DNA of 16,478 nt from a virus (IMGVR_UViG_2802429235_000005:1-16478); one strand, 5' to 3'; positions 806 through 16,478 are shown, numbered from the stretch's first letter. Numbers and translations: made by a program. Notes: generated by a model from the sequence alone, not told the origin.

Positions 806-1261
806 TTATTGCTGGTATTGCCAACTGCTGACTAAAGCGTACAAGTGGTTTGGAGAATAGCGCCAGCTTTCCTTCAGTTGCAGAAATTCAGCACAAAATT
901 CACTGCAAAACAGGCGATCGCGCTGTTCTTTATTACCGGTAATAATTCCTAATGCTCCGCGCCAGTCATATTTCTTGCCATCATGTTTACGGAAAAAAGT
1001 TTCCACATCCTGAAGGCTGGCCTGGAGCGGCAGCATATCCCACTTATCCGCTGGCAATGGCATTATCTTTCCGCGTACACCGCGATCGCGCAGTGATGCA
1101 GAGTAACAAAGGTAACTCTTTTCACCATGCGCCACGGCTAATTCACAGTGGGAATAACTACCGTGTGTGATTTTACGGGTAAGCCAGTCAGCCAGTCGGG
1201 CAATACCACGGTGCTCTGTTCGGCCCTTATAACAAGCGAGCCAGACAGTGGTTTTACTCAT
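806..1261 (-). CDS. Hypothetical cargo protein; possible permuted NlpC/P60-type (YaeF/YiiX-like) Cys/His hydrolase
   Basis: 151-aa ORF whose ATG (1261-1259) overlaps the TGA of the upstream fibre chaperone (ATGA coupling). Motifs 'GSYSHCELAV' (S-H) and 'LFCSEFCAEF' (C-S-E) occur in the His-then-Cys order seen in permuted papain-fold amidases. Family assignment is by eye only. Confidence 0.5.
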   Translation of the reverse strand: MSKTTVWLACYKGRTEHRGIARLADWLTRKITHGSYSHCELAVAHGEKSYLCYSASLRDRGVRGKIMPLPADKWDMLPLQASLQDVETFFRKHDGKKYDWRGALGIITGNKEQRDRLFCSEFCAEFLQLKESWRYSPNHLYALVSSWQYQQ

Positions 1262-1965
1262 GGTTGCCAGCCTGTGGAGTAATCGTAGTCGAGCACCGCC
1301 TGAATATCGTCCAGAGCTTCCACCGCCGCGATATGACGCTGGGCGTTGGCGAACAGGCGCATATCGTGATCCATTGTTACCGATTCAAACTGAGCGGCGA
1401 TTTCGTTGGTTAACTCAATCAGACCGTTATTTTTAGTTTTCCACATTAAACCTGGAAGGATTTTTTTCTCCGCTCCCATTTTAGTGAGCGAGAGCTGTTG
1501 GATACGGCTATTTGTATCACTGTGGAAATGATGGTTGTTGATGATGATGTAATCGGTTGTGATGGCATCGCGTTGATTTTTGATTGCAGAGTATTTCGCC
1601 TCTTTAGCATCAGTTATGGATGGTTGCCATTTTTCACCATCCCAACGTTCAAAAGAACCTGTTGGGGAAATGATGGTGACAGTTTCAGGTAATTGGCCCA
1701 ATTCTTGAGTAATAAGCTGGCTACCATCAACTTTGTTATAAACAGTTTGCCCGCGATGATCTTCAATGAGCTCCCATTTTTCATTCACCCAAACAGGAGT
1801 AAAACCTGAAACCTTTTCGGGTGGTGAATTTAATGTGCAATGATTTGGCAAACCTGTATTAGGTGCAATGTATGCATCAGACTCACCGATATATTCTTGG
1901 GTGTCTTGTGAAAAGTTATAAACAGTCAGTATTTGAGCTTCATCGGAAAATGTAAAAGTATTCAT
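1258..1965 (-). CDS. Tail fibre assembly chaperone (P2 gpG / Mu gpU functional analogue)
   Basis: 235-aa ORF immediately downstream of the tail fibre gene with ATGA overlap (fibre stop 1964-1962, ATG 1965-1963). Position and size are typical for a fibre chaperone. Sequence looks more AT-rich than the baseplate genes. Confidence 0.6.
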
Positions 1966-3542
1966 GCTAGCCTCACAATATAATTGAATGCGATATTTTT
2001 AACGGTGTTTTCGGTATTGCCGGTATTATTAATGGTTATAGAGTGGTTATGGGCCCCAAGTGCAATTGAATGTGAATGGGTGCCGAGAGTAACAGTGTGC
2101 GAATGGGAACCAATTGTAATACTATGAGCGTGTGATGGAACATTAATAGCCAAAGATGATCCGGTACCAGGGCCATATGATGTCCAGTCGCCTTGGCCCT
2201 CTGGTGAAGATGTCCCTGTTCTTACTGTTGCAGTTGCCGAGCCTGAGCCAGATGAACTTGTTTTTTTATTACCATAGTTAAATGCTGATGTAGTTTTAGT
2301 ACCCAAGTCTGTTAAAACTGTGGTTTTCGTCCCTAAATCAGTATTCGAAATACTACCCGTATGGTTGTGCGATTTAACCCCATCCAGTTCAGTAGATAAT
2401 ATATTACGCCCACTGCTGGGTTTCCCTTTAATTATCCATCCACGCATATCAGGAATAACGCCAGATGGATATGCAATTGCCAGTTTGGGATATGAGGCTT
2501 TATTAAATGTCTGACCTGTCATCAGGGCGTAGCCAGAAGGTACAGAATCAGACGGCCAGGGAATAGGCATCCCTACAGGACAGCTTTCCGCAGCAATAGC
2601 CTTATCCATCGCTGCCTTAACCGCATTTGGTGTTGCAGCTTCCGTCGTACTGGTGCTGTTGGTCGCATTATTAAGCTTCACGACCCCTTTTTGTGTCAGC
2701 GTACTGTCGGGGATACCTGTTATTTGCCCCCAGGCATGGGTATGGCTGGCAGGTGCCGCAGCATTGGCCTTATCCATTGCGGCCTTAACCGCACTTGGCG
2801 TTGCAGCTTCCGCCGTACTGGTGCTATTTGTCGTGTTGTTAAGTTTAACGATCCCTTTCTGCGTCAGCGTACCGTCAGGGATACCAGTAATCTGATTCCA
2901 GGCATGAGTATGACTAGTGGCGGCTTTACTATTTGCCAGGTCATATGCCGCTTTTACCGCTTTTGGCGTGGCCGCTTTGGTTTCATCATCGCTATTGGTC
3001 GCATTACTCAGCAGCGTAAAACCTTTCTGCGTCAGCGTCGCATCAGGATGATTCCGTGATTGTTGATGTTCTTTCAGCGTTTCATCGACATATTCTCTGG
3101 TTGCTATAACGACTGAAGGGTCGATCAAAAGCGTCACCGCGTCAGCATTGGTCACTTCCATAACTGCGCGAATAACAATTTGCTTACTGGCACCCGCAGG
3201 TAATAGCGGTTTATAGGTTTCCGGAAATTTGCCAATAGCAACTAGTGTGCCGTCAGCATCCAGTAGCCCAACCTCGCGGACGTACCAGCCACCTACTTGT
3301 TCAGGAATAATCGTCTCTGCGATAACCCAGGCTGGATTATCAGGCGCAATTTTTAAGGTATTTAGTTGCCCACGCCAGACTTCATGCACAACTTTGGTTT
3401 GACTTTCTGTCGGCTCGACATAATGACCATTGCCATCGCCGACCACCATAGTTTGTAGGCGGATCTGTTTTTGCTCCGCCAGCGCAGAGGCAATTTTTGA
3501 TTTGCCTGCGGTGGTTAATATTGTAAAAAATTCACTTGCCAT
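1962..3542 (-). CDS. Tail fibre protein (P2 gpH-like N-terminal anchor, central tandem repeats, C-terminal HxH-rich tip)
   Basis: 526 aa. N-terminus '[37 protein letters not shown]...EVWRGQL' resembles the conserved P2 gpH-type fibre N-terminus. Three ~56-aa tandem repeats ('TLTQKG..L.NATNS...AATP.AVKAA.D.A'). C-terminal '[35 protein letters not shown]'. Confidence 0.9.
2583..3044 (-). repeat. In-frame tandem repeats (about 168 nt, 2.75 copies) inside the tail fibre gene
   Basis: Protein residues 167-320 form three consecutive copies of the same motif. The same periodicity shows up in the antisense plus-strand ORF 2653-2895 ('[14 protein letters not shown] ... [15 protein letters not shown]'). 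Confidence 0.85.
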
Positions 3543-3544
3543 AC

Positions 3545-4261
3545 TTACTCCGGGTATACAGACATAATTTCGGTACTCCAGTATCCTGTGCCGACATGAA
3601 TCGGTTGGGATTGTGTAATGCGATCAGGTTGATACGGAAAGAGATTTATGTATTCCTCAACACAGTAACCTGTCGCTAAAAATAGTGTCGATGACTGCCA
3701 AATACTCTCCGCAATAGGGGGTAATACAGTAATAACCTCCCCACCCTGGATTGCGCTGCCAATAACTGGCATTTGACTTTGGTTAATAAGCCAGATGGTA
3801 ATGCTTTCAAGTTTTGAACGAACATTTTTATATTCGTGAATTAATGCGATAAGTGCATTAAATTCATCTTCATTTAATCCTTTTTCCTCTAGTGTAATAT
3901 CAACCTTAAAAAAATAAGCCTTCCCCCCATATTCAAACCATTCTGAAATAGTTCCTGGTAGCGAAAGTATTTCCAGCACCCGCCGTACCGCCCAAATCGT
4001 TCCTTTATATTTATGCAGCTCAATGGCTTGCTTAATTAACTCGCGCTTCTCCCGTTCATCAGTGGTAAATAACCAACCTTCCAGCCCCTGAACGTGAAAT
4101 TGTTCTGCAAGCGTAGGCAAAGCCGAAGCATCAACCAGGTCTACCAGATAAACCATCAACGCCGTCAGATCGAGTTGGGCAAAACGCTCGGCAGCGATAT
4201 TTGCCAGAGTTGAAAAACGCTCATCGCTGGCAAGCGGCGGTGGCGGCAGCAATTTATCCAT
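3545..4261 (-). CDS. Baseplate protein, P2 gpI-like (Mu gp48 position)
   Basis: Sits between the gpJ-like and fibre genes. Internal '[26 protein letters not shown]' block and C-terminal '...GGEVITVLP' match the gpI pattern. ORF track start 4276 is TTG; ATG at 4261 has a GGAG 6 nt upstream, so 4261 is preferred. Stop TAA 3547-3545. Confidence 0.7.
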
Positions 4262-5369
4262 CGCTGACTCCGGCAATCGTGACGTCTATCGCGGTGCATT
4301 CCGCCCACTCATGCGCCTGCAAAATACGTTTTGTAGGCATATTCAGCGCAACGTCATAAACACCATCGACTTGTAACACTTTGATTATCTGGTTTGGCAC
4401 AATGTCCTGTCCCAGATGTGTTTGGCGCTGTTGCGTCCAGAGGCTAATCGCTTTATGCGCCTCAGCCAGCGTTGTTTCCTGATCGGCGGTGGTAAACAGC
4501 GTGAGCTGCGCACGGATCTCATACGGCACCCTAACGGCGCATTTCGCACTTACTTTGTCGGTCAGCGGACGTTTTTTCTCCTTGCTAACCTCCAGTTCAA
4601 TTTGCGCGAGCAGTTCCACGCCCGGCAGACCATTCAGCGTTAGCGGGTAGATCTCCACGCAGCCTTCTGGTAATCCTTCGTCCGGCCCCAGTACCGCGAC
4701 GTCAATAATCGACTGGCTTACGGAAAGCGTATGAAAGCGGTAGGCACCATAGCTGCCCGCATTGCTGAAACTTTCCGGCGCCAGTTGGATCCGCTGGCGT
4801 AGTGCGTCATCGCTCTCTTCACCGCAGCCGCCGGTTGAGGCCGTCAGGTTGGTCACGCTGATATCGTAATAACCAATCCTGTCAACAAGGGCGCTAATCT
4901 GTGCAGGCTGCCAGCCATTGCCCGCTTCGCCTGTTGCCAGACTGGTGGCGGGAACGGCGATATGCAAACTTCCCGCCGGAATCAGAACATCTTCATCGGT
5001 AGCAAACATCACGCTGTCAGAGGCGCTGGCACGTGTTCCTTGTGGAATTAGAATGTTATTTCGATTCTTACTGGCTACCGAAAACTGCAACGTGGTTTTT
5101 GCCGGTTGTGCAGGTAAGCGGTGAACGCCCACCAGCTCACCTAAATAATCCAGCATTGGCGCGCGGGAATACGCGACCAGATTCTGTTTCGCCGCTTCCT
5201 GAATGGCGATGCGTACAAGGTTTTCACGATAGGCAAAAAGGTCAATCAGCAACCGCTCGGCCTGTGCCGGGTAGAGCTTTTTGCCGCTGGCATCTTCATA
5301 CTGCGCAATCATCTCGCTGGTAATTTGCGCAGGATCGCGGTCAATAAAATCGGGTTCGGCTATCGCCAT
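4254..5369 (-). CDS. Baseplate wedge protein, P2 gpJ-like (Baseplate_J family)
   Basis: 371 aa. ATG 5369 preceded by GGAGGTG. Overlaps the gpW end by 10 nt and the gpI start by 8 nt. Conserved gene order W-J-I. Confidence 0.8.
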   Translation of the reverse strand: MAIAEPDFIDRDPAQITSEMIAQYEDASGKKLYPAQAERLLIDLFAYRENLVRIAIQEAAKQNLVAYSRAPMLDYLGELVGVHRLPAQPAKTTLQFSVASKNRNNILIPQGTRASASDSVMFATDEDVLIPAGSLHIAVPATSLATGEAGNGWQPAQISALVDRIGYYDISVTNLTASTGGCGEESDDALRQRIQLAPESFSNAGSYGAYRFHTLSVSQSIIDVAVLGPDEGLPEGCVEIYPLTLNGLPGVELLAQIELEVSKEKKRPLTDKVSAKCAVRVPYEIRAQLTLFTTADQETTLAEAHKAISLWTQQRQTHLGQDIVPNQIIKVLQVDGVYDVALNMPTKRILQAHEWAECTAIDVTIAGVSDG

Positions 5370-5719
5370 AACACCTCCGTTGAGTTGATTACGCCGTCAG
5401 CGGCGCGCCATTGCACACGTAACGTCAGATGTTCCCCGTCGATTACCGGTGTCACCTTCAGCAACCGGCAGCGCGGTTCCCACTGGCGGATGGCCTCTAC
5501 CGACTCCCTTACCACATGCGGAATCGCCCGCTCGATGGGATAATCGATGTAGTGCCACAAGTTGCTGCCAAACAGCGGTCTGTGGGGATCACTGCCGCGC
5601 GGTGTGCGCAGAATGATGTGTATTGCCTGGTGAATATCATCCAGTCCGCAGACGTATTCTTCAGGCCGCTGCAAGGCTGGTTGCCAGTGCAGCGTAGAGG
5701 GGCGTGTTGTCGTGTTCAT
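5360..5719 (-). CDS. Baseplate protein, P2 gpW / T4 gp25-like
   Basis: 119-aa ORF directly upstream of the gpJ-like gene. Size and the 'LFGSNLWHYIDYP' region fit the gpW/gp25 family. Confidence 0.75.
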   Translation of the reverse strand: MNTTTRPSTLHWQPALQRPEEYVCGLDDIHQAIHIILRTPRGSDPHRPLFGSNLWHYIDYPIERAIPHVVRESVEAIRQWEPRCRLLKVTPVIDGEHLTLRVQWRAADGVINSTEVLWR

Positions 5720-5780
5720 GAGGGTATTTTCGCCCTGAACAGGCGGCGGGGATATTAAAGCGATTTAAAAAACTGATTGA

Positions 5781-5812
5781 TTAAAAAGAGAAAACCCGCC
5801 ATCAGGCGGGTT
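5781..5812 (-). terminator. Intrinsic terminator-like hairpin plus U-tract between the gpV-like and gpW-like genes
   Basis: Minus-strand RNA reads TGA-cguuu-AACCCGCC-ugau-GGCGGGUU-UUCUCUUUUUAA: 8-bp GC-rich stem (plus-strand 5793-5800/5805-5812), 4-nt loop, then a U-rich run. Confidence 0.55.
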
Positions 5813-5817
5813 AAACG

Positions 5818-6519
5818 TCAGTGTGAATGGTGGTTGGAGTTGCCACCGCTGTCCTGCAATGTGCCGCTGGCCTGAACGTTACCAATCACATTAACATTGC
5901 CAGTTATCGTGGCGGCGTTGCCGATGCCTCCACTTCCTGCCATGCCACCAAGCCAGGTGAGTTTTTTCATCACTGTGACGTTGCCGGTAAAGGTGCTCAT
6001 GGGCGCATCTACCGTCACTGCTGCCGCTTTAACATCGACCTTACTGGCTTCAATGCTGACATCGGTGGCTTTCACATCAACAGTGTCGGAAGTCACGGTG
6101 ACGTGTTGGGCTTTAACCTCAACGTTGGGCGATGTCAGGCTGGTACGGTCAATAACCTCAATCACGATTTTTTCGATGCCACCATTAATCGTAAGCTGGT
6201 GGGTGCTGCGGTCATATTCAAACGCTGCGCCATCAGAAAACTGGACATAGCGTTTGTCGCGCGATGCTACTGGCGCGGTATCTACCGTTGAATATACTGC
6301 GCCCAGCACCACGCCATCTTCACCGTTATCATCCAGCAGAACTTCCACCTGTTCGCCCATATCCGGTAGCCAGTAATCCTTATTGTCCTGAGAATTGCGC
6401 TGCAGCACCGCAAGCCAGTTACTCTTCAGATTGTCACACTCTGGTAGCGTGACCCGCACCCGAACGCTGGTTTCGTCAATATCGCTGATAATCCCCGTTT
6501 GCCGGGTTACTCCTTTCAT
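5818..6519 (-). CDS. Baseplate hub/spike protein, P2 gpV-like
   Basis: 233 aa. 'DYWLPDMGEQVEVLL' and 'QFSDGAAFEYD' match gpV-type motifs. Followed by V/T-rich beta-helix-like periodic repeats and a His-rich C-terminal tip 'NSNHHSH'. AGGAGG upstream of ATG 6519. Confidence 0.8.
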   Translation of the reverse strand: MKGVTRQTGIISDIDETSVRVRVTLPECDNLKSNWLAVLQRNSQDNKDYWLPDMGEQVEVLLDDNGEDGVVLGAVYSTVDTAPVASRDKRYVQFSDGAAFEYDRSTHQLTINGGIEKIVIEVIDRTSLTSPNVEVKAQHVTVTSDTVDVKATDVSIEASKVDVKAAAVTVDAPMSTFTGNVTVMKKLTWLGGMAGSGGIGNAATITGNVNVIGNVQASGTLQDSGGNSNHHSH

Positions 6520-6528
6520 ATTGCCTCC

Positions 6529-7569
6529 TTACTGGCTGGTCGCTGGCCCGCGTGAAACGTCGATTTCAGTGGTATAGCCGCTGCGCACAAAACTGTGAGT
6601 AGATTTATCAATCAGCCACTGACCGGAAAGCACACCAAAATCGGTTAGCTCGATTTTATTGCCTGCCGTCAGTTCCGGGCAGCCCATCATCCTGAGCGTT
6701 CCGGTTTGTTGATATTCGTTGTGGCTGTCGAGCGCGGCGTTGGCCTTTGCCTGCGCCGCGCCAACGTCCGGCGCCCGACTGTTCAGTTTCAGCGTGTCGG
6801 CACTGGTGCCGACTCCACGGGCAGACGGCTTTTGCTGGCTGTCGTGAGTGTAGATAACCAGTTCTTTTTTCTTACTATTTTGATGCTGTACGGTGGCGTT
6901 TTTGTAGATGCGGTTAATGGTATCTTTGAAGGTGAAATGCGAAACGTCTTTGCGGTCGATCTTTTTCACCGGCGCCAGGCAGCGCAGCGTGGGTAAATGC
7001 GAAAAAATCAGCTCTTTGGTGGTCACCTTTACCGCATAGCCATATTCGCTGGCCAGGCGCTTGAGAAATCCGACATCGGTTTCGCCGTACTGTGTCACCC
7101 GGTCAATCGTCAGCGGCTCGATTTTGCCCACCAGCGTCAGGCCGTGAGTTTGCGCGATACGGCTGGCGATGGCTGAAAGCGTTGTCTCTTCAAAGCCCTG
7201 ACTGTTACGGGTGCGCAGCGCCTGATTGACGGAAGTGGCGATGCCATCAATATTTACCGTGGAAGGTGGTGCTGAAATGTCAATTTTATCAATGATATAT
7301 TGACCACAATCGAGCAGTTTTTCCCCCTGATAACCTATGTGCAGCGCCAGCGTATCGCCTTTGCCGGGATACCACTCTTTTATCCAGCGTCCATCGGTGT
7401 CATCCAGTGTGATCGCGATGGTATCCGACTCGTTTTTAATACTGTCCTGGTAACTGATGCTGGTGACATAAGGCGTGATGTCATAAGTGATATCTTTATG
7501 CCCATACCACAGGGTAAAAATGGGCGCGAGCGTGGCAAAGACGCCGCCAGTTACGCTTATCTCAGCCAT
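6529..7569 (-). CDS. Tail protein, P2 gpD-like (late control D family)
   Basis: 346-aa ORF between the gpX-like and gpV-like genes. Start ATG 7569 overlaps the gpX-like end by 13 nt. Size and position fit gpD / Mu P. Confidence 0.75.
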   Translation of the reverse strand: MAEISVTGGVFATLAPIFTLWYGHKDITYDITPYVTSISYQDSIKNESDTIAITLDDTDGRWIKEWYPGKGDTLALHIGYQGEKLLDCGQYIIDKIDISAPPSTVNIDGIATSVNQALRTRNSQGFEETTLSAIASRIAQTHGLTLVGKIEPLTIDRVTQYGETDVGFLKRLASEYGYAVKVTTKELIFSHLPTLRCLAPVKKIDRKDVSHFTFKDTINRIYKNATVQHQNSKKKELVIYTHDSQQKPSARGVGTSADTLKLNSRAPDVGAAQAKANAALDSHNEYQQTGTLRMMGCPELTAGNKIELTDFGVLSGQWLIDKSTHSFVRSGYTTEIDVSRGPATSQ

Positions 7570-7766
7570 GGTGGGATCTCCGATACGGTCTTGTTGACGG
7601 TAATGACCGGAATAATGAGCTGAATACCGGCAGGCAGTACCGGATAAATGGCGACATGTGGATTGGCGGCGATAATGCGTTCATAAGCCAGTGCATCACC
7701 GTAGTAATGCCATGCCAGGTTATCCCAGCGTTCGCCGTCGGTGGTGATATGTTCAAGGTATCGCAT
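7557..7766 (-). CDS. Tail protein X, P2 gpX-like (LysM-like)
   Basis: 69 aa. 'TTDGERWDNLAWHYYGDALAYERIIAANPHV' follows the gpX pattern (G-D-x-LD ... YYG ... ANP). TAATG overlap with the upstream gene. Confidence 0.7.
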   Translation of the reverse strand: MRYLEHITTDGERWDNLAWHYYGDALAYERIIAANPHVAIYPVLPAGIQLIIPVITVNKTVSEIPPWLR

Positions 7767-8719
7767 TACCAGCTCCTCGTAATGGTCGCGGCAGCGAGCT
7801 GAGTCACTGCGGGAGTGGTTTGCTGTACCGTTGTACGCGCCTGCTCAACCAACGTTGTGGCTTTATCGAAAGTTGCTTCGGCGATGGCGCTGGTGATGCT
7901 GCCAAACAGTTCTTGTGCATGGTCAACCAGTGTCCCGGCGTCTTCGGCACAGTCGCGGATGCCCGGCATGTTACCCAGCAATGCTTTAATCTGCGCCGAC
8001 AACGCTTTTGGTAATCCTGCCAGCGTTTGCAGATCCATCGGCTGTTTAAACAGGGTTTCGATGGCATCAATAGTCTTTTTCAACGACTTAATTATCTTTT
8101 CACACTTTTCTTTTAACGCTTTGGCCTCTTTAATCAGTGCTTTGACCTTTGCCACTGTTTTTTTAATATCTTCAATGGATTGCGCCAGTTCATCGATCAT
8201 CTCTTTGGCTTTGCGCATACCTTCTTCAATGGCGTTCAATATCTGATCCAACCAGGACTCCACCTTGTCCGGAAAATCGCTCGCCTTTTCGTCAATATTA
8301 GGCTCCTGGGTGGTAATCGCCGGGGGCAGGAGTGGGTTTTTCGGATCGCCGGTATACTCCTGGAGCGACATTGTTCCGCTTTGGGCAATGACATTGCCCC
8401 AGGGATCGGTGTGCTGGTGAGTGGCGGTTAACTCTGTAATTACAAACCAGCCGCGATAATCACCGTTGCCAAACACCAGCGCCATTGCTTTGTGGGCAAG
8501 CATGGCTTCACGCAGTCGATTCAGCTCTGTTGTGGGTTGGCAAAACTGGCTGTGCAGGGAAAATTCCAGCGCCAGCATGTCCAGCTTATCGCCAATAAAC
8601 TGCACGCCAGGTTTGCCTTCAATACGGGCATGTGTGGCGTAATCCACGCCCATTGTGCTTTTAAAGCCGTCCCAGAATGTGACAACTTTAAATTCAATCT
8701 CACCTAAAACGGCATACAT
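7766..8719 (-). CDS. Tail protein, P2 gpU / Mu N (DNA-circularisation protein N-domain)-like, with coiled-coil-rich C-terminal half
   Basis: 317-aa ORF immediately after the tape-measure gene (TGATG overlap), the conserved position of gpU/N. The C-terminal half is heptad-like and K/E/A-rich ('KAKEMIDELAQSIEDIKKTVAKVKALIKEAKALKEKCEKIIKSLKK'). Confidence 0.5.
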   Translation of the reverse strand: MYAVLGEIEFKVVTFWDGFKSTMGVDYATHARIEGKPGVQFIGDKLDMLALEFSLHSQFCQPTTELNRLREAMLAHKAMALVFGNGDYRGWFVITELTATHQHTDPWGNVIAQSGTMSLQEYTGDPKNPLLPPAITTQEPNIDEKASDFPDKVESWLDQILNAIEEGMRKAKEMIDELAQSIEDIKKTVAKVKALIKEAKALKEKCEKIIKSLKKTIDAIETLFKQPMDLQTLAGLPKALSAQIKALLGNMPGIRDCAEDAGTLVDHAQELFGSITSAIAEATFDKATTLVEQARTTVQQTTPAVTQLAAATITRSW

Positions 8720-11079
8720 CAGGCATACCCCCGGCGCTGTTGCTGCGCCATTACGTCGTTAATCATTCTTTCCAGTTCGCGTTTACTCATCGTCAATACG
8801 TTCTGAATGTCTTTAGTGGTGTTTTGTCCGTTACCCTGCACGGTAATTTGTGGCGAAAAATTCACCTGGACTTTTCCTGGGGAACGGGAGGGTAGCGTCG
8901 CCGGTTTGGTTACGGATTTACCTGATAAAGAGGCCGACGCGGGTTTTGCCACTGGCGCCGATGACGGCGTTGTCGTTTTGCTGGATGGCGCGAGTTGTTT
9001 GCCCACTGGAGGCGTTAAAAGCGCACCGGCAACGCCTGGAACAACGGTCGCGGGGGAGACTGATGCGGTATTAGTCGTGCCTGTAACAGTCGCAGCCGAT
9101 GCTTCTGTGCCGATCCCCATTGTGGCTTTTAGCCAGTCTGGCATGGCGTTTTTGACCTGATCAATAATGCCTTTCAGAGCGGGGAAAGCATTCATTATGC
9201 CGTCGGCCAGGCTAGCCAGTATATTGCTGCCGAACTCGCTAAAACTCGCAGGCATCTCAACACCAAACCAATTCATCACACCGGAAAAGGCGCTGTAGAA
9301 CAGCCCCAGTGGCGACCAGTCGAGAATCAACCGGCTAATACCTGCAATGCCACCGTCAAAGGCCGTGGTAATACGTTTCCAGATGGCGGAAAAGAACCTG
9401 GTGATAGGTTCCCAGTTGCGATAAATCAGATAAGCCGCGCCCGCAATCGCAGTGATGACCAGACCAATGGGATTCATCAGTAGCACCCGGCCTAGTGAGA
9501 GAACGGTTCGACCAACCAGTTTCAATGCTCCGATCAGGCCACGACCAAGCAGTTGCGTTAGCCATTTTGCGCCGCCACCCAATGACTTAACCGCCAATAG
9601 CACCTTACTCGCTGCGCCTCCGGGCGCCAGACTTGCCCTGACTTTCAGGAAGATATCGACCAGACGAATAAACGGCGAGGCGATGAAGTTCGCGCCCAGC
9701 TTTAAAACATTCAGCGCGCCGTTAAACAGCCAAATCGCCCCGACGATTTTCGCAATGTTTTGCACCAGCGCCGGATGTTCGCGTAGCCAGGCGCTGAACT
9801 GGCGAATAACCGGCGCAAGGCTTTGCGCCAGCTCGCCAATCGCCGGCATAAGTTGTAAGCCAATGCTGAGCCATAAATCATTTAACGCCAGTTGTAACGC
9901 TTTAGTCTGTTCAATGGGCGAAGCCATTTGCGCAGAAAAGTCGGCATCAATCAGATTCTTGCTGGTGGCTTGCATGGCAGAGGCTTTTAGCTGGCGATAC
10001 TCTTCCATGTTCGCCAGCATAGGGGCCAGGAATTCCACCGTTTGTGCATCGCCGAACATTTCGTCCAGATTAAACTGCGTCACCATCGATTGCAGCGCAG
10101 TGCTGCGGGCAGATAAATCTTCAATCTGCATGGTGCGTTTGAAGGTATCGAGGATCGCCGGATTCATCTTCTCAAGCTGCATTTGCACGATATGAGTCAT
10201 GGCTTCGCTAACACCCATACCGTTTTGCTGATGCTCAAGCAGAGAACCTTGCAGATCGACGCCCTGGCTGGCGAACCAGCTATCGGTTTTTTTCGAAAAG
10301 GTGGTTTGCAGAAAATGGTCGAAATTCTCCGCCGCTGTACTGGCGCTGGCACCGTTTTTCATGGCGATCTGCATGGTGGCGGTCAGTTCAGCCATACCTT
10401 CCAGACCCTGAGTGCCGGTTTTACCTGCAAATTTCTCTATCCACTGCGTTTGTTCGGCAATGGCAGGCCCACCGCTTTTGGTCACGCTGTACATCATGTT
10501 TTGCGCGGCGTTGAAATTTTCCGGGGCAATATTCAGTCGATCATGAGTCGCGAGCGCGGCTTTCGCCCATGTTTCGGCGCTGTCGCGCGTGGCGGTGGCG
10601 GCTTTGGCGATCTCCGGCATATAGCGGTTGAGATCCTGCAAGGACGATACATTGCCTTCAACTAAGGTCAGAGCGGCGGACTGTAACGTGGTCTGCTGCT
10701 GGTTAAAATCCATACTCCAGTCGCGCAGATTCAGGCTGAGCGTCTCGCGAGTGGCATCACTCATCCCACCTTTGGCCGCCATATTGACCATATTGTCCTG
10801 AAACTCATACGGTAACTTCCAGTCGGGGGCTTCAACATTGAATACTTTGCTAAATTGCCCGGCAAATGTTTGGGTTTTCTCCATCAGATTAGCGCGGCTG
10901 CGGCTATTTTCCTCCAGGCGGAGAGCGGAATCGGCAAGTCGCTGCGTTAGTTTGATAACTGTCGCTTGCTGAGTAGAGAGAGTTAACAATGTTCTGGCGT
11001 TGAGTGAGCCGTAACGGGCTATTGCCTGCGTCAACGTCTCATTACGCGCCTGAAGCTGGGTAATAATATCGTTGGCCAA
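8719..11079 (-). CDS. Tail tape measure protein
   Basis: 786 aa, the largest ORF, between chaperone and U-like genes. Internal hydrophobic segments and a P/S/T/A-rich low-complexity region near the C-terminus. Apparent TTG start at 11079 preceded by AAAGAGAAA; an in-frame TAA lies 5 codons upstream, so the ORF cannot extend further 5'. Confidence 0.85.
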   Translation of the reverse strand: MANDIITQLQARNETLTQAIARYGSLNARTLLTLSTQQATVIKLTQRLADSALRLEENSRSRANLMEKTQTFAGQFSKVFNVEAPDWKLPYEFQDNMVNMAAKGGMSDATRETLSLNLRDWSMDFNQQQTTLQSAALTLVEGNVSSLQDLNRYMPEIAKAATATRDSAETWAKAALATHDRLNIAPENFNAAQNMMYSVTKSGGPAIAEQTQWIEKFAGKTGTQGLEGMAELTATMQIAMKNGASASTAAENFDHFLQTTFSKKTDSWFASQGVDLQGSLLEHQQNGMGVSEAMTHIVQMQLEKMNPAILDTFKRTMQIEDLSARSTALQSMVTQFNLDEMFGDAQTVEFLAPMLANMEEYRQLKASAMQATSKNLIDADFSAQMASPIEQTKALQLALNDLWLSIGLQLMPAIGELAQSLAPVIRQFSAWLREHPALVQNIAKIVGAIWLFNGALNVLKLGANFIASPFIRLVDIFLKVRASLAPGGAASKVLLAVKSLGGGAKWLTQLLGRGLIGALKLVGRTVLSLGRVLLMNPIGLVITAIAGAAYLIYRNWEPITRFFSAIWKRITTAFDGGIAGISRLILDWSPLGLFYSAFSGVMNWFGVEMPASFSEFGSNILASLADGIMNAFPALKGIIDQVKNAMPDWLKATMGIGTEASAATVTGTTNTASVSPATVVPGVAGALLTPPVGKQLAPSSKTTTPSSAPVAKPASASLSGKSVTKPATLPSRSPGKVQVNFSPQITVQGNGQNTTKDIQNVLTMSKRELERMINDVMAQQQRRGYA

Positions 11080-11171
11080 AATTGTTTCTCTTTAAATATT
11101 GATAATGGCCCGCTGGTTATTTTTCTAAAAAAAAGGGGCAGGGAAGAAATAAACCTGACGGGCTTGGAAAA

Positions 11172-11194
11172 CTCGCAGACATCAGGTCTGCGAG
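11172..11194 (-). promoter_or_regulatory. 9-bp-stem hairpin in the chaperone / tape-measure intergenic region
   Basis: Plus strand ctcgcagac-atcag-gtctgcgag. On the minus strand it is followed by UUUUCC (weak U-tract). It contains the stop of a +1-frame ORF that overlaps the chaperone gene end. Confidence 0.35.
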
Positions 11195-11269
11195 TCATAT
11201 TCGATTTTTATTTGGGCGTTGGCTTCATCCAGCCAGTTGCTAAAGTCATCGACGGTAAGGGCGTCTATC

Positions 11270-11587
11270 TCACTGGGCGGAAAGCGAAACCATCTTGCCA
11301 GTAACGCCATCGCTTGCCATAACAGTGGCAGATTCTGTAGCCACGCTAAGCATGGATTGAAATCGTTTCTGCAATGCCTGGTAATCCAGCAAATCCATTT
11401 CAGCTAAATCTTCTGGCACCAGTCCGGTCATTGCAGCCATTAGCGGTTCATCCCATTCTTCTGGTTTTTCGCTGATCCGGCGCGCGTTGCGCATATCTTT
11501 TACTTTCAGGCGACGTAATTGCAGAGTGTTAATTACGTCTCCCGCCGCTGAAGTAAACGGGAACTGTAAGGTATAATGTTCTTTCAT
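11270..11587 (-). CDS. Tail assembly chaperone (P2 gpE-like position)
   Basis: 105-aa ORF between the tube and tape-measure genes. AGGA 7 nt upstream of ATG 11587. Position is the conserved chaperone slot; no canonical -1 slippery heptamer found. Confidence 0.5.
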   Translation of the reverse strand: MKEHYTLQFPFTSAAGDVINTLQLRRLKVKDMRNARRISEKPEEWDEPLMAAMTGLVPEDLAEMDLLDYQALQKRFQSMLSVATESATVMASDGVTGKMVSLSAQ

Positions 11588-11615
11588 TTTGTATCCTTAT
11601 TGGTCATGCGGAAAT

Positions 11616-11631
11616 CGGGGCCGTAGCCCCG
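11616..11631 (-). promoter_or_regulatory. GC hairpin between the tube and chaperone genes (possible attenuator)
   Basis: cggggc-cgta-gccccg, a 6-bp perfect GC stem with 4-nt loop, 7 nt after the tube stop and not followed by a strong U-tract. Confidence 0.4.
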
Positions 11632-11637
11632 AATAAC

Positions 11638-12162
11638 TTAGCCACCGATGTTATTGCGATAGGTACTTAATTGATCCACGCCGTTAACGCGGAAAATATT
11701 CGCCAGGTAATCCAGTTCCAGTAGTGTTTCACCATCGACCACCTGTTTAATATAGGTACAACCAAAGGCGCTGCTGAATTCCGGGTTTTCATTCTGTTTA
11801 AATGTTCCCAATGGATTCTTTTTAAACATAACAGTCAAATGAGTGACTAACGCTAATTGATTCGCTTTCCCCTGGGAGTTATAGCAATCAATACTGGAGC
11901 GGCACTGTAATGCTACCGCCTGCCACGGGTTTGCCGTTTTACGCATGACGTCCTGATAAAAGGAGTTCCATTTAATTTCCCCTTCCAGTTTATCGAAACC
12001 TGCCGGGAGTTCGATTTTGCCGACCATGCCCAGTGCTTTATGCTCCTGCATAATTAAACTGACATCCGGTAATTTAATTTCGGTTGCACGACCTAAAAGG
12101 TTATTACCATCGAGATAAATATTGGCATTGGTAATACGGTTAATTTGAATTTTTCCAGCCAT
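11638..12162 (-). CDS. Tail tube protein (P2 FII-like)
   Basis: 174 aa. N-terminal 'IYLDGNNLLGRATEIKLP' and C-terminal 'VDGETLLELDYLANIFRVNGVDQL' match the FII tube pattern. TAATG overlap with the sheath gene. Confidence 0.8.
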   Translation of the reverse strand: MAGKIQINRITNANIYLDGNNLLGRATEIKLPDVSLIMQEHKALGMVGKIELPAGFDKLEGEIKWNSFYQDVMRKTANPWQAVALQCRSSIDCYNSQGKANQLALVTHLTVMFKKNPLGTFKQNENPEFSSAFGCTYIKQVVDGETLLELDYLANIFRVNGVDQLSTYRNNIGG

Positions 12163-13586
12163 TAGCTATTGCTCTCCAGAGAGACTAAATATTCAGAGGT
12201 AATTTCAGTTTCAAACGTCAGACGTTCCAGCGGCGGTGGCGGGGTGAATTTATAGCTCAGCAATAAATGCCCGGCACTGAGTTCGGTCGGTGAATTTCGC
12301 GCCGGATCGTACCAGCACTCAAAGCCAAGCAGTGCGCCGTCGGCAATCAGCTTACGGCCCCAGGTATTTACCGACTCGGTCAGGGCATCAATTAGCGCCT
12401 GATTAATCGGCATATCGATATACTGCTGGCTGAAATAACGGATCGACTCGTTAATCACATCACCCGTGCGGCGAACGTTTTCAAAGTTACGCATATGGGT
12501 CACGGTTGGCCATGCCGCAGTGCGGTTGCCCCATAAACGCAGACCAGAGCCGTAACTATTGAAAACTGTGGTAATGCCGTTTTCGTTGAGCTGATTCACT
12601 TCACTTTGCGGGTCATCAACCATTGCGGAAAGTGAACGTTCGATACCGATAATGCCCTGAATTTCCTGGTTTGAGTTGCTCCACCAGAAACCTTTCTCCA
12701 GGTCTACTTTGGCACGCAGTCCGGCAGCGCGTGAAGAGAGCGGTTCGAGAACTTCCTGGTTGGTTGCGCCGTCATAAACTTTGACGTGCGGATAGCACAA
12801 ACGCGCACGGTCAGAACTGGTGTTGAAGTTGATTGCGCCTTTCGAGCCGCGACCAGCCAGCACCTGCTGGAATGTAGTACCGATTGGGGCGTCAATGTAG
12901 GCGATAGCACCGAGTTTTTCCGCCTGAGCAATCAGTTCGGTGGTGACCGATTTTTGCGTACAGAAAACGGGAGCAAGCAGGATTTTGGCGTAGAAACCAT
13001 ACAGGTTATAGGTATCCTGTAGCAGTTTCATCCCAGTGCGATCGCCTGCGGTATTAACGGCGCCAATAATATCGGCTGCGGTAACTTTTGTTGGATCGGC
13101 CCATGAGTAATAGGCACAAACTTTCGCTCCGGCAGGGATCTCAGTCTCTGCACGAGTGATTATTCCTGTTTGTTCATCAACATGAAACGCTGTGCTGCTA
13201 TACGTAGTGGCTGATGTTGAAGAGGGTTTCAGGACGACATTACGCACCGCACGATGAGCCAGTTTTGCCTGGTTGTTGGAATCAAAAGTGATACTCTCAT
13301 TGCTGATGCTGGAGCCATGTTTTGCCGGATCCAGTACGTTAATCACCACCACCGTACCGGCGCCGTGGTCATAAATCGCCTTCAGCGCCTGCGGGATAGT
13401 AAAGTTAGCCTGAGTCGAGCCAAACTGCGCGGCATCGCTTTCAGAAAGGCACAATGTTGGTTTGTTTACCGGACCGCATGGTGCACTACCGATTAAAGCG
13501 ATTACAGCGGATTTTACCGCTTTAACCGGGCGCGGACCGGTTTCAATTTCAATGGTTTCTACACCGTGCAGGTAATTAGCTGCCAT
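12162..13586 (-). CDS. Contractile tail sheath protein (P2 FI / Mu L-like)
   Basis: 474-aa ORF directly upstream of the tube gene. ATG at 13586 preceded by AGAGGAAA; the ORF-track start 13592 is a TTG two codons earlier. Confidence 0.85.
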   Translation of the reverse strand: MAANYLHGVETIEIETGPRPVKAVKSAVIALIGSAPCGPVNKPTLCLSESDAAQFGSTQANFTIPQALKAIYDHGAGTVVVINVLDPAKHGSSISNESITFDSNNQAKLAHRAVRNVVLKPSSTSATTYSSTAFHVDEQTGIITRAETEIPAGAKVCAYYSWADPTKVTAADIIGAVNTAGDRTGMKLLQDTYNLYGFYAKILLAPVFCTQKSVTTELIAQAEKLGAIAYIDAPIGTTFQQVLAGRGSKGAINFNTSSDRARLCYPHVKVYDGATNQEVLEPLSSRAAGLRAKVDLEKGFWWSNSNQEIQGIIGIERSLSAMVDDPQSEVNQLNENGITTVFNSYGSGLRLWGNRTAAWPTVTHMRNFENVRRTGDVINESIRYFSQQYIDMPINQALIDALTESVNTWGRKLIADGALLGFECWYDPARNSPTELSAGHLLLSYKFTPPPPLERLTFETEITSEYLVSLESNS

Positions 13587-13773
13587 GTACAATTTCCTCT
13601 CCGTTATTTTGTTCTTCCTGAGTGATGACAGGAGTCAGGTGATTGCGGGCAATCATGGTCATAACCCACTCGTTTTCTTCTGGCAGATCAATTTCACTGT
13701 TCGGCCACAATAAGATTTCTTGTCCGTCGGCAAGGGTGACGCCGCTTGCCGGGCCGTTGTAGATGTATTTCAT
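13576..13773 (-). CDS. Small conserved-position protein (Mu gp38-like slot), function unknown
   Basis: 65-aa ORF. ATGA overlap with the upstream gene and 11-nt overlap with the sheath start, so it is translationally coupled on both sides. Confidence 0.5.
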   Translation of the reverse strand: MKYIYNGPASGVTLADGQEILLWPNSEIDLPEENEWVMTMIARNHLTPVITQEEQNNGEEIVHGS

Positions 13774-14225
13774 TCAGTTTCCTCGTAATTAACTTCAGTA
13801 AGCAGGGTAAGGTCCGTGCTTTCCCGTTTTGCGATAAACAGCGATCTGGTCGCCATTTCCAGGATGTAGCGGCAGAAACCACCGCTCTCGCCTGCATTGA
13901 TTTCTGTTTCAAGCCAAAGAAGACGCTCGCAATCAGGAAGCTGGATCCCCCCCAATGCGCTGCGTATGCGATCCAGTGCGTTTAACGCGCCACAATTTTT
14001 GCCAACAATAACGGTGGCAGTTAAACGGAGCGTTTGCTGTTGCACGAGGGCATCACTGCTTTCAGGCATGGCAAATAGAGAACCGCTATAATTAATAATC
14101 ACTGTAACTTTCTGCGTCTGCGGAATATATTTATTGGCATCAACCGATGAAATAAATACGTCCATTTCGGGATTCTGTTCACGTAATCTGGTCACAACAG
14201 AATTAATTACAGATAAAATTTCCAT
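13770..14225 (-). CDS. Tail-associated protein (Mu gp37-like slot), possibly tail completion/terminator
   Basis: 151-aa ORF, first gene after the lysis-cassette terminator. AAGGAA 8 nt upstream of ATG 14225. Function inferred from position only. Confidence 0.5.
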   Translation of the reverse strand: MEILSVINSVVTRLREQNPEMDVFISSVDANKYIPQTQKVTVIINYSGSLFAMPESSDALVQQQTLRLTATVIVGKNCGALNALDRIRSALGGIQLPDCERLLWLETEINAGESGGFCRYILEMATRSLFIAKRESTDLTLLTEVNYEETE

Positions 14226-14330
14226 ATAGGGTGTTCCTTAATTACTGCTCACTTCGTTATCGTTGAAATGTATTCTGAAGCAGTGAAGGTGAAGAATCTT
14301 TTAATGTGATTTAGAGAAAAAATTGAATGG

Positions 14331-14366
14331 CTATAAAAATCCCCACACTTACGTAAAGGTGGGGAT
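14331..14366 (-). terminator. Intrinsic terminator after the lysis cassette
   Basis: Minus-strand RNA has stem AUCCCCAC / GUGGGGAU (plus-strand 14339-14346 / 14359-14366) with an internally palindromic loop, followed by UUUUUAU. Begins about 5 nt after the spanin-like stop. Confidence 0.6.
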
Positions 14367-14370
14367 GTAT

Positions 14371-14685
14371 TTAATAGCTGCCACGTTGTAATAGCTCTAT
14401 TTTGCTATATAAGGCATCCAGCTTTGCTTCTAATACTGCCTGGCCACGAAGATAATCTTCTCTGCGGACATAATGCAGCGGAAGCTCGGCACGAAATTCG
14501 AGAAATTCTCTTTCCAGTTTCGACCAGCTTGTTTCTGATTCCCGGCGCGCGTTTTCCAGAGATTCAAAACGCTCATTAAGTCTTTTTTCAATTTGCGCTA
14601 ACAGCAATTTTCCGGCAGCAAACATTAATCCAACGAAGGAAAGCATAAGGGAGATCACTTCCCAAAAATCGATACTGAGTTTCAT
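14371..14685 (-). CDS. Lysis accessory protein, Rz-like i-spanin candidate (N-terminal TM helix plus coiled coil)
   Basis: 104 aa. 'VISLMLSFVGLMFAAG' transmembrane segment followed by a charged heptad-rich region. Immediately downstream of the lysozyme gene; GAGGGG upstream of the ATG. Confidence 0.45.
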   Translation of the reverse strand: MKLSIDFWEVISLMLSFVGLMFAAGKLLLAQIEKRLNERFESLENARRESETSWSKLEREFLEFRAELPLHYVRREDYLRGQAVLEAKLDALYSKIELLQRGSY

Positions 14686-14697: not shown

Positions 14698-15303
14698 TTA
14701 GTGAAGACAGCTTGCCTGCCCCCAGAGTAAGTAGCGGGCGGCATGTTGATAGAGGATCATCTTCGGATAGTGACGATTTTCTCGCCAGTTTGCGGCACTA
14801 CGCCCGGCGTTGACGTGCTCAACATGACCAAACCAGATGGTGGCATCTAACCCTTTGGATGCGGCCAGTTTTTTATCCCGATTAACCCATCCCTGACCAC
14901 CGTTATAGGCGCTTAGGGTAAACGCCATACGCTGGCAGCCATTTTTCGCCGAGATGTTTTTCCACAAATGCTGGTCATATTGCACCAATGCGCGAATCGC
15001 CCAGGTTGGGTTATAGGGCTTGTTTTCACGTAGCTGTGGATACAACTGGCTTATCCATGTCGCTGTGGCAGGCATAAATTGCGCCATACCCTGTGCGCCG
15101 ACGGGGGAACGCGCCATTGGCTGCCAGGCTGATTCCTGGTGCAACTGCCCGGCGAAGTCTGCCACCGGGGCGTTCAGTCCCCAGACTTCTCGTGCAGTTC
15201 GAATCAGTTCGTTTCGCCATGCCAGAGATGCTCGCGGCGGTTCAGATGCGTTAAGCGGGAAGAACGCGAACAGAGTAATTAGCGCGAGAAATTTTACCTG
15301 CAT
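14698..15303 (-). CDS. Lytic transglycosylase (SLT family) with N-terminal signal sequence; endolysin candidate
   Basis: 'QESAWQPMARSPVGAQGMAQFMPATA' matches the SLT catalytic motif (E-S ... G-A-x-G-x-M-Q-x-M-P-x-T-A) and 'LSAYNGG' the AYNxG motif. N-terminus 'MQVKFLALITLFAFFPLNA/SE' from ATG 15303 (AGGA 7 nt upstream). The ORF-track 5' extension to 15402 is rejected. Confidence 0.8.
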   Translation of the reverse strand: MQVKFLALITLFAFFPLNASEPPRASLAWRNELIRTAREVWGLNAPVADFAGQLHQESAWQPMARSPVGAQGMAQFMPATATWISQLYPQLRENKPYNPTWAIRALVQYDQHLWKNISAKNGCQRMAFTLSAYNGGQGWVNRDKKLAASKGLDATIWFGHVEHVNAGRSAANWRENRHYPKMILYQHAARYLLWGQASCLH

Positions 15304-15305: not shown

Positions 15306-15593
15306 CTAAAGTCCTAACGCGACGGAAAGGCAGACGGCTGCAACGATGATAGCCCGACGAATCATTGCCGCCGCGCAGCATCGCGCCTCTTCCCAGGGGC
15401 AAAATGAGTCAGGCCGCGCCCAGGGAAACAGACTGCGATCGAGCCAGTATCCCAGCACAGCGGCGAGCGAAACCAGACTTAGTTTATAAATGACAACCGG
15501 GATCTGTGCGGAAGATGTACAGCCGATCGCGACAAACAGCGCGACGGAAGCGACCAGCCAGCCGGAAAGACGGGGAAAAGTGACTTTTTTCAT
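15306..15593 (-). CDS. Holin-like small membrane protein
   Basis: 95-aa ORF with AGGAG 7 nt upstream of ATG 15593. Two or three hydrophobic segments. Immediately precedes the lysozyme gene (stop TAG 15308-15306, lysozyme ATG 15303). Confidence 0.5.
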   Translation of the reverse strand: MKKVTFPRLSGWLVASVALFVAIGCTSSAQIPVVIYKLSLVSLAAVLGYWLDRSLFPWARPDSFCPWEEARCCAAAMIRRAIIVAAVCLSVALGL

Positions 15594-15889
15594 ACGATAT
15601 CTCCTGATAAGTGAGCGTTTAGTGTCGCCAGATCCCTCCAGTGAAGAATGAAAAAAGCTTTAATAAATAACTTTAAAAAATAGATCCTCTATAAATGAAC
15701 ATGCTTGCTAATAAATCCACCCATTAATAAAAGAGCAAAAGGTGTCCTGGAGAATAAGCGCGTCATTATGCAGGGAAAAGAGGATGGTGAATCGTAGGAA
15801 TAGCCCATAGTCATTTGATTTTTAAAGTTTGTTTAAGAAAGTCAGCGACTGTGAGGGAAACGATCTTTTTACACTACAGGTAAAAATAA

Positions 15890-15909
15890 TACTGTATGCA
15901 CATACAGTA
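15890..15909. promoter_or_regulatory. LexA (SOS) operator, near-consensus
   Basis: TACTGTATGCACATACAGTA: CTGT-N8-ACAG palindrome matching the enterobacterial consensus TACTGTATATATATACAGTA at about 17/20 positions. Located in the divergent control region. Confidence 0.7.
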
Positions 15910-15930
15910 TCGTGTAAAATGATACTCCAG

Positions 15931-15961
15931 TTGACAAGAAACATAACGCAAACAATATATT
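15931..15961 (+). promoter_or_regulatory. Candidate sigma-70 promoter directed toward the Mor-like gene
   Basis: Perfect -35 TTGACA (15931-15936) followed 17-19 bp later by an A/T-rich -10-like AATATA/TATATT (15954-15961). Gives a roughly 170-nt leader before ATG 16131. Confidence 0.35.
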
Positions 15962-16130
15962 TATTTTGTGAATTTATGACGTTCATTAATATTAAAAATT
16001 TATATTTTTGGTGATTGTTTATTTGTTTGTTGAATGTATTGAGTAGCAGTAATGACAACTGCTTAGCGTATATCCGTGGTTTTACACGCATCGGGTCTTA
16101 TACAGGATGCAAGATATATGGAGATGAAAA

Positions 16131-16478
16131 ATGATACGAAAATCAAAAGAGATGGCCCGGACACCGGAGATCATTAACGACCTGGCGTTTCATGCATCGC
16201 AAGTTCTGATTGAGAGCATCAATCTCGACAGTTCATCGGCGGAAAATGTGGGCTTTGCCATTGCCGACCGAATGATGCGTAACTGGGGTGGGCAAAGCAT
16301 TTATTTCCCGAAAGGGATCTCCGGACGGGCGTCGGAGCGTGACTACCAAATCTATAGCGAGTGCGATGGTCGCAACTACGCCGAATTAGCGAAGAAATAT
16401 AATCTGACGTTGCAATGGATTTATAAGATAGTGAAACGCGTACATGCGGAAAAGCAACAGCGCCGTAGTAATTCGTAA
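16131..16478 (+). CDS. Mor/C-family transcriptional activator (phage Mu middle/late activator family)
   Basis: 115 aa. 'NWGGQSIYFPKG' and C-terminal 'DGRNYAELAKKYNLTLQWIYKIVKR' (HTH) fit the Mor/C pattern. GGAG 7 nt upstream of the ATG. Divergent from the lysis/tail cluster. Confidence 0.65.
   Translation: MIRKSKEMARTPEIINDLAFHASQVLIESINLDSSSAENVGFAIADRMMRNWGGQSIYFPKGISGRASERDYQIYSECDGRNYAELAKKYNLTLQWIYKIVKRVHAEKQQRRSNS

Follow-up and report, generated by a model that had tools for sequence, protein, structure and literature searches.

A divergent Mor/C-family activator of BcepMu-type ancestry beside a conserved LexA operator in a tailocin-like island at lysC

Why would a transcription activator be encoded facing away from the genes that it presumably activates? 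The question is raised by a 16,478-nucleotide (nt) stretch of viral DNA (IMGVR_UViG_2802429235_000005:1-16478, hereafter the window), whose terminal gene, mor (16131..16478, plus strand), encodes a transcription activator of the Mor/C family. Opposite it, on the minus strand, lie genes for a holin, an SLT-domain transglycosylase, a gp25-like membrane protein, Gp37, and the sheath, tube, tape-measure and baseplate proteins of a contractile tail. An earlier note on this DNA compared the layout with that of phage Mu, took the divergent orientation as a sign of rewiring, and proposed that the cluster is a compact two-tier SOS switch. The orientation turns out to be ordinary once the right phage relatives are compared.

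The difference from Mu is real, but it does not extend to the relatives, the Burkholderia phage BcepMu and the Escherichia coli Bcepmuvirus PhiKM, which carry the closest phage homologs of the Mor protein encoded here (BcepMu gp01 at 49% identity, PhiKM 'C' at 44%). In both phages the element ends with the Mor/C gene, the last cistron of a ∼9-kb early operon, where it comes after gemA, is under the control of the phage repressor, and runs against the direction of the lysis, head and tail genes. The proteins of the gene island in the window are collinear with those of BcepMu, with identities of 66% for holin and gp21, 52% for the transglycosylase and gp22, 27% for Gp37 and gp37, 44% for the gp38 pair, and 72% for the sheath and gp39. 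A Brenneria prophage keeps the full early operon, ending in gemA-mor, beside host DNA, and in a Lonsdalea remnant part of the early operon is gone. The island differs from BcepMu and PhiKM in that the early genes, the head genes and Rz/Rz1 are missing and a separate 537-bp region, with a LexA operator, lies upstream of mor; gemA, which precedes mor in BcepMu, PhiKM and Brenneria, is not present. On this comparison, the divergent orientation of mor is inherited from a BcepMu-type phage ancestor, and the window would owe its layout to the loss, from a BcepMu-like order, of the early genes that separated mor from holin and of the head genes that stood after the lysis cassette and before gp37. Loss of the ∼10-kb early region (transposase, repressor, gemA and others) would have placed mor 537 bp from holin, and loss of the head genes would have put the ancestral late promoter directly before gp37 and the tail genes. 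Two candidate relics of these deletions were rejected: a gemA remnant upstream of mor gave no tblastn signal, and the 537-bp spacer had no blastn-short similarity to PhiKM, BcepMu or IMG/VR phage loci. Separately, the Lonsdalea element (L116 1822-7393) has holin, the repressor, a few early genes and mor beside host genes, and an IMG/VR locus (L065 1-6000) keeps early regulators with its head genes gone; both are partly deleted BcepMu-like remnants and apparently phage-to-tailocin intermediates.

The assignment of the gene at 16131-16478 to the Mor/C family, made in the earlier note, holds. Its product matches the Pfam family Mor (PF08765) from profile position 2 to position 103 of 107 (E=7.1e-38), scoring 129.3 bits where the curated cut-off is 24.9. 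In phmmer searches against the PDB, residues 46-109 align (E=5e-8) to chain positions 58-121 of crystallised Mu Mor (1RR7), with the Mu C structure 9L0X also aligned (E=7e-5). At the sequence level, the C-terminal helix-turn-helix DNA-binding domain is thus homologous to those of Mu Mor and C. The open reading frame (ORF) runs from ATG to TAA over 115 codons, the stop being the window's last codon, and its product of 115 amino acids (aa) is at the short end of the family range of ∼115-140 aa. Its ribosome-binding site GGAG (16120..16123, plus strand) lies inside an invariant block, ATATGGAGAT, and is unchanged in all aligned genera. Between Escherichia coli alleles the gene has synonymous differences only (nonsynonymous rate dN=0, synonymous rate dS=0.22), and between genera dN is 0.07-0.13 with dS saturated. 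By these estimates mor is under purifying selection, with dN/dS far below 1, and because of this selection it is judged to be functional.

Since the earlier note had called whatever follows mor decisive for interpreting the locus, the sequence past 16478 bears directly on the question. There, 54 bp past mor, lies the convergent host gene lysC, followed by pgi, yjbEFGH, psiE and malGF in all eight contigs read, with no second activator and no head genes; mor is likewise succeeded by lysC, pgi and yjbEFGH in E. coli A37, Salmonella SARB27, Dryocola, Phytobacter and Superficieibacter. Because lysC and host genes come next, mor is the last gene of the island. Just past the window's end, in a contig that is 99.5% identical to the window (L005 10361-10392), a perfect 13-bp hairpin, GGTGAATAGCGAC/GTCGCTATTCACC, separates the mor and lysC stops and is probably a shared bidirectional terminator. 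Pfam scans and gene calls found no regulator gene in the island other than mor, which faces away from the lysis and tail cluster across the LexA-box region, as had been described.

Unlike the orientation, the LexA operator looks derived, to judge from its distribution. It lies in the 537-bp AT-rich spacer that parts mor from holin, as a 20-mer palindrome, TACTGTATGCACATACAGTA (15890..15909; inverted repeat I12), around a CTGT-N8-ACAG core at 15892-15907 that occurs once in the 16.5 kb. Both the CTGT/ACAG arms and the flanking TA are intact, and the operator deviates from the LexA consensus, which we take to be TACTGTATATATATACAGTA, in the central spacer only. A box of this kind is not rare in itself, with 0.16 expected by chance and at least one found in 29 of 200 shuffled sequences. 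The box is credible because it is conserved across spacers: of the 33 distinct island spacers, drawn from 43 homologous ones, 28 have it in register, across at least five genera. The spacers that lack it belong to an Enterobacter-like lineage and to one copy with an ISL3/DUF1706 insertion. In that E. coli-like copy (L008 7571-10001), an ISL3 transposase and a DUF1706 gene stand between holin and mor, and the strict LexA-box pattern is absent from the whole 2429-bp holin-mor spacer. The regulatory regions of the phages PhiKM and BcepMu, and those of the Brenneria and Lonsdalea elements (L115, L116), contain no comparable box.

The second conserved element is found in front of the tail genes. 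A Mor/C-type late promoter (14272..14323, minus strand) consists of ATTTTTTCTCTAAATCACATTAAAAG (14323-14298), 20 nt, and the -10 hexamer CAGAAT (14277-14272), and it lies ∼40 nt before the Gp37 start without a -35 hexamer and without a LexA box. The motif is unique in the window, scoring 35.8 bits with a position weight matrix (PWM) compared with at most 9.6 in shuffled sequences (nhmmer E=5.8e-5). A regular-expression harvest of all fetched loci returned 38 distinct instances, from lysC-type islands, from holin-first islands with carotovoricin-like order and no adjacent mor, and from full-length phages, and in all hand-counted instances (∼12) an nAnAnT hexamer follows exactly 20 nt past ATTAAAAG. 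BcepMu and PhiKM share this arrangement of TAAAG-N-ATTAAAAG, 20 nt and a -10: in PhiKM the motif follows gene G and precedes the next head gene (5114-6229), where Mu has its P_I promoter, and in BcepMu, from a different bacterial class, TAAAGCCGATTAAAAGA occurs upstream of both the holin gene gp21 and the head gene gp32. Of the two minus-strand promoter regions singled out by the earlier note, the one before gp37 holds the late motif, at 14298-14323, and the one before holin, 15594-15700, lacks it in its canonical form.

The late element spans ∼-55 to -33 and overlaps the -35 region, which is the architecture of the Mu C-dependent late promoters, where the activator site is centred at -43.5 over the -35 region of promoters that have a -10 but no -35 (PMC2582627); the layout also agrees with the way polymerase is recruited in cryogenic electron microscopy complexes of Mor and C (bioRxiv 10.1101/2025.05.02.651988). 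The helix region (L)QWIYKIVKRV is identical or near-identical in the island Mor, BcepMu gp01 and PhiKM C, which fits the DNA motif that their elements share, and for this reason we assign the gp37 promoter to Mor as its putative binding site. Since the tail promoter has no LexA box, any SOS dependence of the tail genes would have to come via Mor or by read-through of the terminator between the lysis and tail genes.

Taken together, these elements incline us, by a modest measure, towards an SOS cascade from LexA to Mor to the tail operon, in which mor and a leftward leader would both be held off by LexA. The LexA operator would replace the phage repressor as the sensor, and would sit on a promoter pair, one directed toward mor (-10 TAAAAT) and the other toward the holin leader (TTTACA-16-TACAGT). 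Upon DNA damage, RecA would become active, LexA would be cleaved and mor transcribed; Mor would then bind the 23-nt A/T-rich element of the gp37 promoter and, in the manner of Mu Mor and C, bring in sigma70 RNA polymerase to turn the tail operon on. Transcription of the lysis unit could start at the leftward promoter under operator control, at a proximal promoter with a conserved block (block D, below), or at both. A fuller version, which we put forward tentatively and with the odds against it, would have LexA fire two arms, the leftward lysis leader and mor with its tail operon, as a feed-forward loop created by deletion of the early region, in a so far unrecognised but functional tailocin that Salmonella (STM4198-4219), some E. 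coli and several further Enterobacteriaceae would have inherited at lysC.

The position of the operator is in accordance with such a promoter pair. It overlaps the spacer and -10 of a leftward promoter and the -35 of a rightward candidate. The leftward, holin-directed sigma70 promoter-like site (15891..15918, minus strand) is made of TTTACA (15918-15913), 16 nt and TACAGT (15896-15891), and its -35 (TGTAAA) is invariant in the aligned genera, with the exception of L044/L045 and the box-less Enterobacter-like lineage, which do not keep it. The mor-directed candidate (15893..15920, plus strand) is made of TGTATG (15893-98), 16 nt and TAAAAT (15915-20); its -35, of the form TGTAT[AG], lies inside the operator, and in most genera it keeps its register and reaches 7-8 of 12 matches. 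The octamer TGTAAAAT comprises the -10 of this candidate overlapping the -35 of the opposite promoter, and the decamer GTGTAAAATG, beside the box, is kept in most box-bearing spacers (exceptions L044/L045; single-base variants L009 and L051), a conservation that reaches past the needs of either promoter alone. We infer an operator placed on back-to-back promoters and able to repress both. Two further mor-directed sites were found on the plus strand. The first, TTTACA-16-TACTGT (15868..15895; inverted repeat I7), mirrors the leftward promoter with 8 of 12 matches and is present in E. coli only, not being conserved in Salmonella, Phytobacter or Superficieibacter. The second, TTGACA-16-CAATAT (15931..15958), is independent of the operator, has 9 of 12 matches and is lineage-specific, with an equivalent in L041 and different sites in other genera.

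Several observations weigh against the cascade. The only promoter-like site that the scan reports between holin and mor is TTTACA-16-TACAGT, which points at holin and is also the best conserved (9 of 12 matches, same register in 10 of 12 representative spacers), which would allow direct control of the lysis unit by LexA; the mor-directed candidate on the operator has a poor -35, with 3 of 6 matches. Operator-independent promoter-like sites stand between operator and mor in every lineage and, if active, would make mor SOS-independent. The holin-proximal region 15594-15700 lacks a canonical late motif, which leaves a Mor dependence of the lysis genes unsupported. The Enterobacter-like loci L032, L033, L056, L057 and L059 keep mor and the late motif with no LexA box. 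Finally, no functional study of the island, or of the regulation of STM4219, its mor gene in Salmonella LT2, was found in the searchable literature, where STM4213 and STM4219 have screen and array mentions only; two Salmonella transcriptome papers had no entries for STM4217-4219 in their supplements. The proposed two-tier switch is thus no more than plausible: a derived, conserved operator and a late promoter without a LexA box fit it, and the best promoter on the operator, facing holin, does not. As a separate observation, the Enterobacter-like lineage keeps the conserved spacer block E (below), lacks TGTAAAAT and has a degenerate block D; these islands may be differently controlled or decaying.

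The lone position of the holin-directed site on the operator, the lineage-specific sigma70-like sites that face mor downstream of it, and the missing late motif near holin would all suit a simpler, one-tier scheme, in which LexA directly represses the holin-directed promoter and, once it is derepressed, a long leader transcript reads into the lysis genes and, by read-through, the tail genes. Mor would then be a booster or a bystander, made from its own LexA-independent promoter or promoters, kept low by AT-rich silencing, and either amplifying or dispensable. We consider this scheme rather unlikely. Between the lysis unit and the tail genes stands a terminator-like hairpin with a T-run, and the tail genes have their own activator-type promoter without a -35. 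In several lineages a hairpin with a U-run in the leftward leader could attenuate the transcript. Were Mor made constitutively, with an intact late promoter to act on, a cost would be expected, and yet strong purifying selection maintains mor.

The lysis unit on which these readings differ begins with the holin gene (15306..15593, minus strand; PF13272, E=1.6e-28), the homolog of BcepMu gp21. It continues with the gene for the SLT-domain lytic transglycosylase (14698..15303, minus strand; PF01464), an endolysin homologous to BcepMu gp22 over 202 aa, for which a 201-aa start was taken from gene calls, and it ends with a gene for a 104-aa membrane protein (14371..14685, minus strand) homologous to BcepMu gp25 and PhiKM 34040 (tblastn identities of 45% and 50%, respectively, over ∼105-112 aa). 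An intrinsic-terminator-like hairpin, CCCCAC...GTGGGG with a T run (14332..14373, minus strand; inverted repeat I2), follows the unit, and its structure is kept in most genera. The Rz/Rz1 spanin genes (BcepMu gp23/24) are absent from the lysC-type island, where the gp25-like gene directly follows the transglycosylase gene (14371-15593); an Rz-like gene is kept in holin-first islands and phages (for example, L073 1221-1580 and L027 12513-13112).

Upstream of holin, a proximal -10-like hexamer, GACACT (15621..15626, minus strand), appears as GATACT or CATACT in other genera (column block AGT[AG]T[CG]) and is placed 27 nt from the ATG, compared with 25 in PhiKM. At a fixed 31 nt from this hexamer and 64-88 nt upstream of the holin ATG lies block D, GCTTTAATAAATAACTTTAAAAAAT (15657..15681), the best-conserved non-coding element of the spacer, which is near-invariant across genera despite saturated synonymous sites. 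Block E, TGATTTTTAAAGTTTGTTTAAGAAAG (15816..15841), is its inverted partner (inverted repeat I6, 11/11) and is kept in E. coli, Salmonella, Phytobacter and the Enterobacter-like lineage. Both blocks were rejected as Mor sites: they resemble the late motif to the eye (TTTTTAAAG...TTAAAG), but the PWM (threshold 9 bits) and gapped nhmmer miss both, and their spacing to the nearest -10 is unlike the fixed 20 nt. Also rejected was a 41-aa ORF in the leftward leader (15689-15814), which is gappy and unconserved between genera. The leader hairpin and U-run take the form CUCACG-AUCG-CGUGAG-UUUUU in Salmonella, and might attenuate transcription before holin. A scan of 14200-16478 against Rfam returned no known RNA family.

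The remainder of the minus strand carries the tail operon. Its first gene encodes a Gp37-family protein (13770..14225; PF09646, E=2.9e-33) homologous to BcepMu gp37, and the rest (806..13773) is collinear with BcepMu gp38-gp52 and encodes, by Pfam matches, a gp38-like protein, sheath, tube, chaperone, tape measure, gpU, X, D, V, W, J, I, tail fibre and fibre assembly. Pfam scans and gene calls found no portal, major capsid, terminase, transposase or repressor gene in the window, and the whole island of E. coli A37, from yjbD to lysC, has no capsid, terminase, integrase, transposase or repressor gene. A full contractile-tail set with lysis genes, and without capsid, packaging, replication or integration genes, is the genomic profile of an R-type tailocin, and on that basis the island is a headless R-type tailocin-like element, a domesticated BcepMu-type prophage that would be expected to produce particles. 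No experimental report of bactericidal tail particles from the island was found in the literature.

An inert prophage remnant, with a LexA box and a mor that have no coordinated function, would also lack head, terminase, transposase and repressor genes. The missing Rz/Rz1 genes, the insertion-sequence insertions or loss of the operator in some copies, and the modest spread of the island, which just 197 of 5426 complete E. coli genomes carry, are likewise what decay would produce. However, the tail, baseplate, fibre and lysis ORFs are all intact, the gene order at lysC is the same in E. coli, Salmonella, Dryocola, Phytobacter and Superficieibacter, mor has accumulated no amino acid change within E. 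coli, and non-coding blocks are conserved where synonymous sites are saturated, which makes mere debris improbable. The identical Mor protein is encoded on thousands of contigs, and the E. coli copies (∼4% of those genomes) are 90-95% identical and always chromosomal. The holin-mor-lysC layout recurs in Salmonella, Dryocola, Phytobacter, Superficieibacter and Enterobacter-like contigs, with mor and the tail cluster inherited together at one chromosomal site across genera. Salmonella LT2 has the orthologous island beside lysC (STM4220): the annotation of SARB27 equates mor with STM4219 and the island with STM4198-STM4219, Mor is ∼88-90% identical, and the LexA box and late motif are the same. 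The Salmonella copy differs by an insertion of gtrABC between baseplate genes.

Comparison with known systems places the proposed cascade among other damage-responsive switches. The island shares with Mu the Pfam family of the activator, whose sequence is homologous to the solved Mor and C structures, and a promoter type with a -10 and no -35. Mu differs in having two sequential activators, Mor (middle) and C (late), co-oriented with the late genes, whereas the island has one, in the opposite orientation, and a different, A/T-rich motif. Mu is not known to be under LexA control. In Pectobacterium, RdgB is a Mor-like activator of pectin lyase and RdgA a dedicated RecA-sensitive repressor; the island has no repressor gene and has a LexA box instead. 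For the R/F-pyocins of Pseudomonas aeruginosa, DNA damage removes the repressor PrtR, the activator PrtN is expressed, and the tail and lysis genes come on (Matsui 1993, as cited in PMC12297226). The island is alike in logic, but PrtN is not of the Mor family, the sensor is the cI-like PrtR rather than LexA, and the tail is P2-like. No gene for a dedicated RecA-cleavable repressor (S24 peptidase or cI-like) is found in the window or in the E. coli A37 island. Because this gene is absent, the island is not a member of the repressor/activator switches, although it would work like PrtR/PrtN and RdgA/RdgB; host LexA appears to take the dedicated repressor's place.

RdgB also suggests that Mor could be a co-opted host regulator, which would mainly control genes outside the island and for which adjacency to the tail genes is historical. 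In phage phiE255 the BcepMu-type homolog is annotated 'DNA-binding protein RdgB', Pectobacterium rdgA and rdgB lie outside the carotovoricin cluster (PMC13566846), and carotovoricin-like loci have no adjacent mor. However, a phage late-promoter motif fronts the tail operon of this island, and mor and the tail cluster have been co-inherited at one site across genera, so that we regard co-option as very improbable; no targets outside the island came to light, no search having been aimed at them. Pectobacterium RdgB was not among the best 120 matches of the profile search, which did include the Mor proteins of the Brenneria and Lonsdalea prophages. Carotovoricin itself, described as a 'Mu-type tailocin', starts with a holin and a lytic transglycosylase, followed by sheath and tube, and is SOS-regulated (PMC13566846, PMC13195805). 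The type-2 loci likened to it by gene order alone share the late motif before gp37, and differ in having no adjacent mor and in keeping an Rz-like gene; the carotovoricin cluster has no mor beside it, its regulators lying elsewhere. Two published elements were set aside as different: the E. coli ST131 'tailocin' (PMC9205054) is a complete P2-like prophage, and BceTMilo (PMC5411513) is P2/KL3-like and not the lysC island. A review of kosakonicin contained no regulatory or locus data.

With the orientation accounted for by ancestry, the interest of the locus lies in an apparent substitution of LexA for a repressor and in a defined late-promoter motif. If the cascade from LexA through Mor to the tail operon holds, a transposable Mu-like phage would have been reduced to a host-controlled weapon that kept its late activator and took LexA as its sensor, and a long-annotated, unstudied island in Salmonella LT2 and a small share of E. 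coli would gain a testable function. BcepMu-group activators of the Mor/C type would also have a defined promoter motif.

Some smaller features of the locus were recorded along the way. In the putative 5′ leader of mor, a hairpin at window 16041-16061 (AGCAGT-AATGACA-ACTGCT) is replaced in other genera by a different stem (GGT..ACC) at the same position, followed by a T-rich run, and could act as an attenuator. An 18-nt direct repeat with 83% identity has one copy, AATGTATTCTGAAGCAGT (14267-14284), that overlaps the -10/start region of the oppositely oriented gp37 promoter, and another, AATGTATTGAGTAGCAGT (16033-16050), ∼90 nt upstream of mor. The gtrABC-type O-antigen glucosylation module of Salmonella (STM4204-4206; L028 6451-9286) lies between baseplate genes W and V. 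At the island's distal end, a gene for a nucleotidyltransferase of the RlaP family (PF10127, E=1e-97) lies in window 1-792 on the plus strand, and the distal flank in E. coli A37 (L026 636-2560) also has a gene of the slipin family; these genes are possibly unrelated cargo between the tail-fibre end and yjbD. One locus with a 57% homolog, L029, was excluded as a frameshift-ridden assembly. Lastly, the tape-measure gene (window 8719-11079) has 786 codons in the window and L005 and 791 in most other E. coli-like copies, a length polymorphism of the tail-length ruler.

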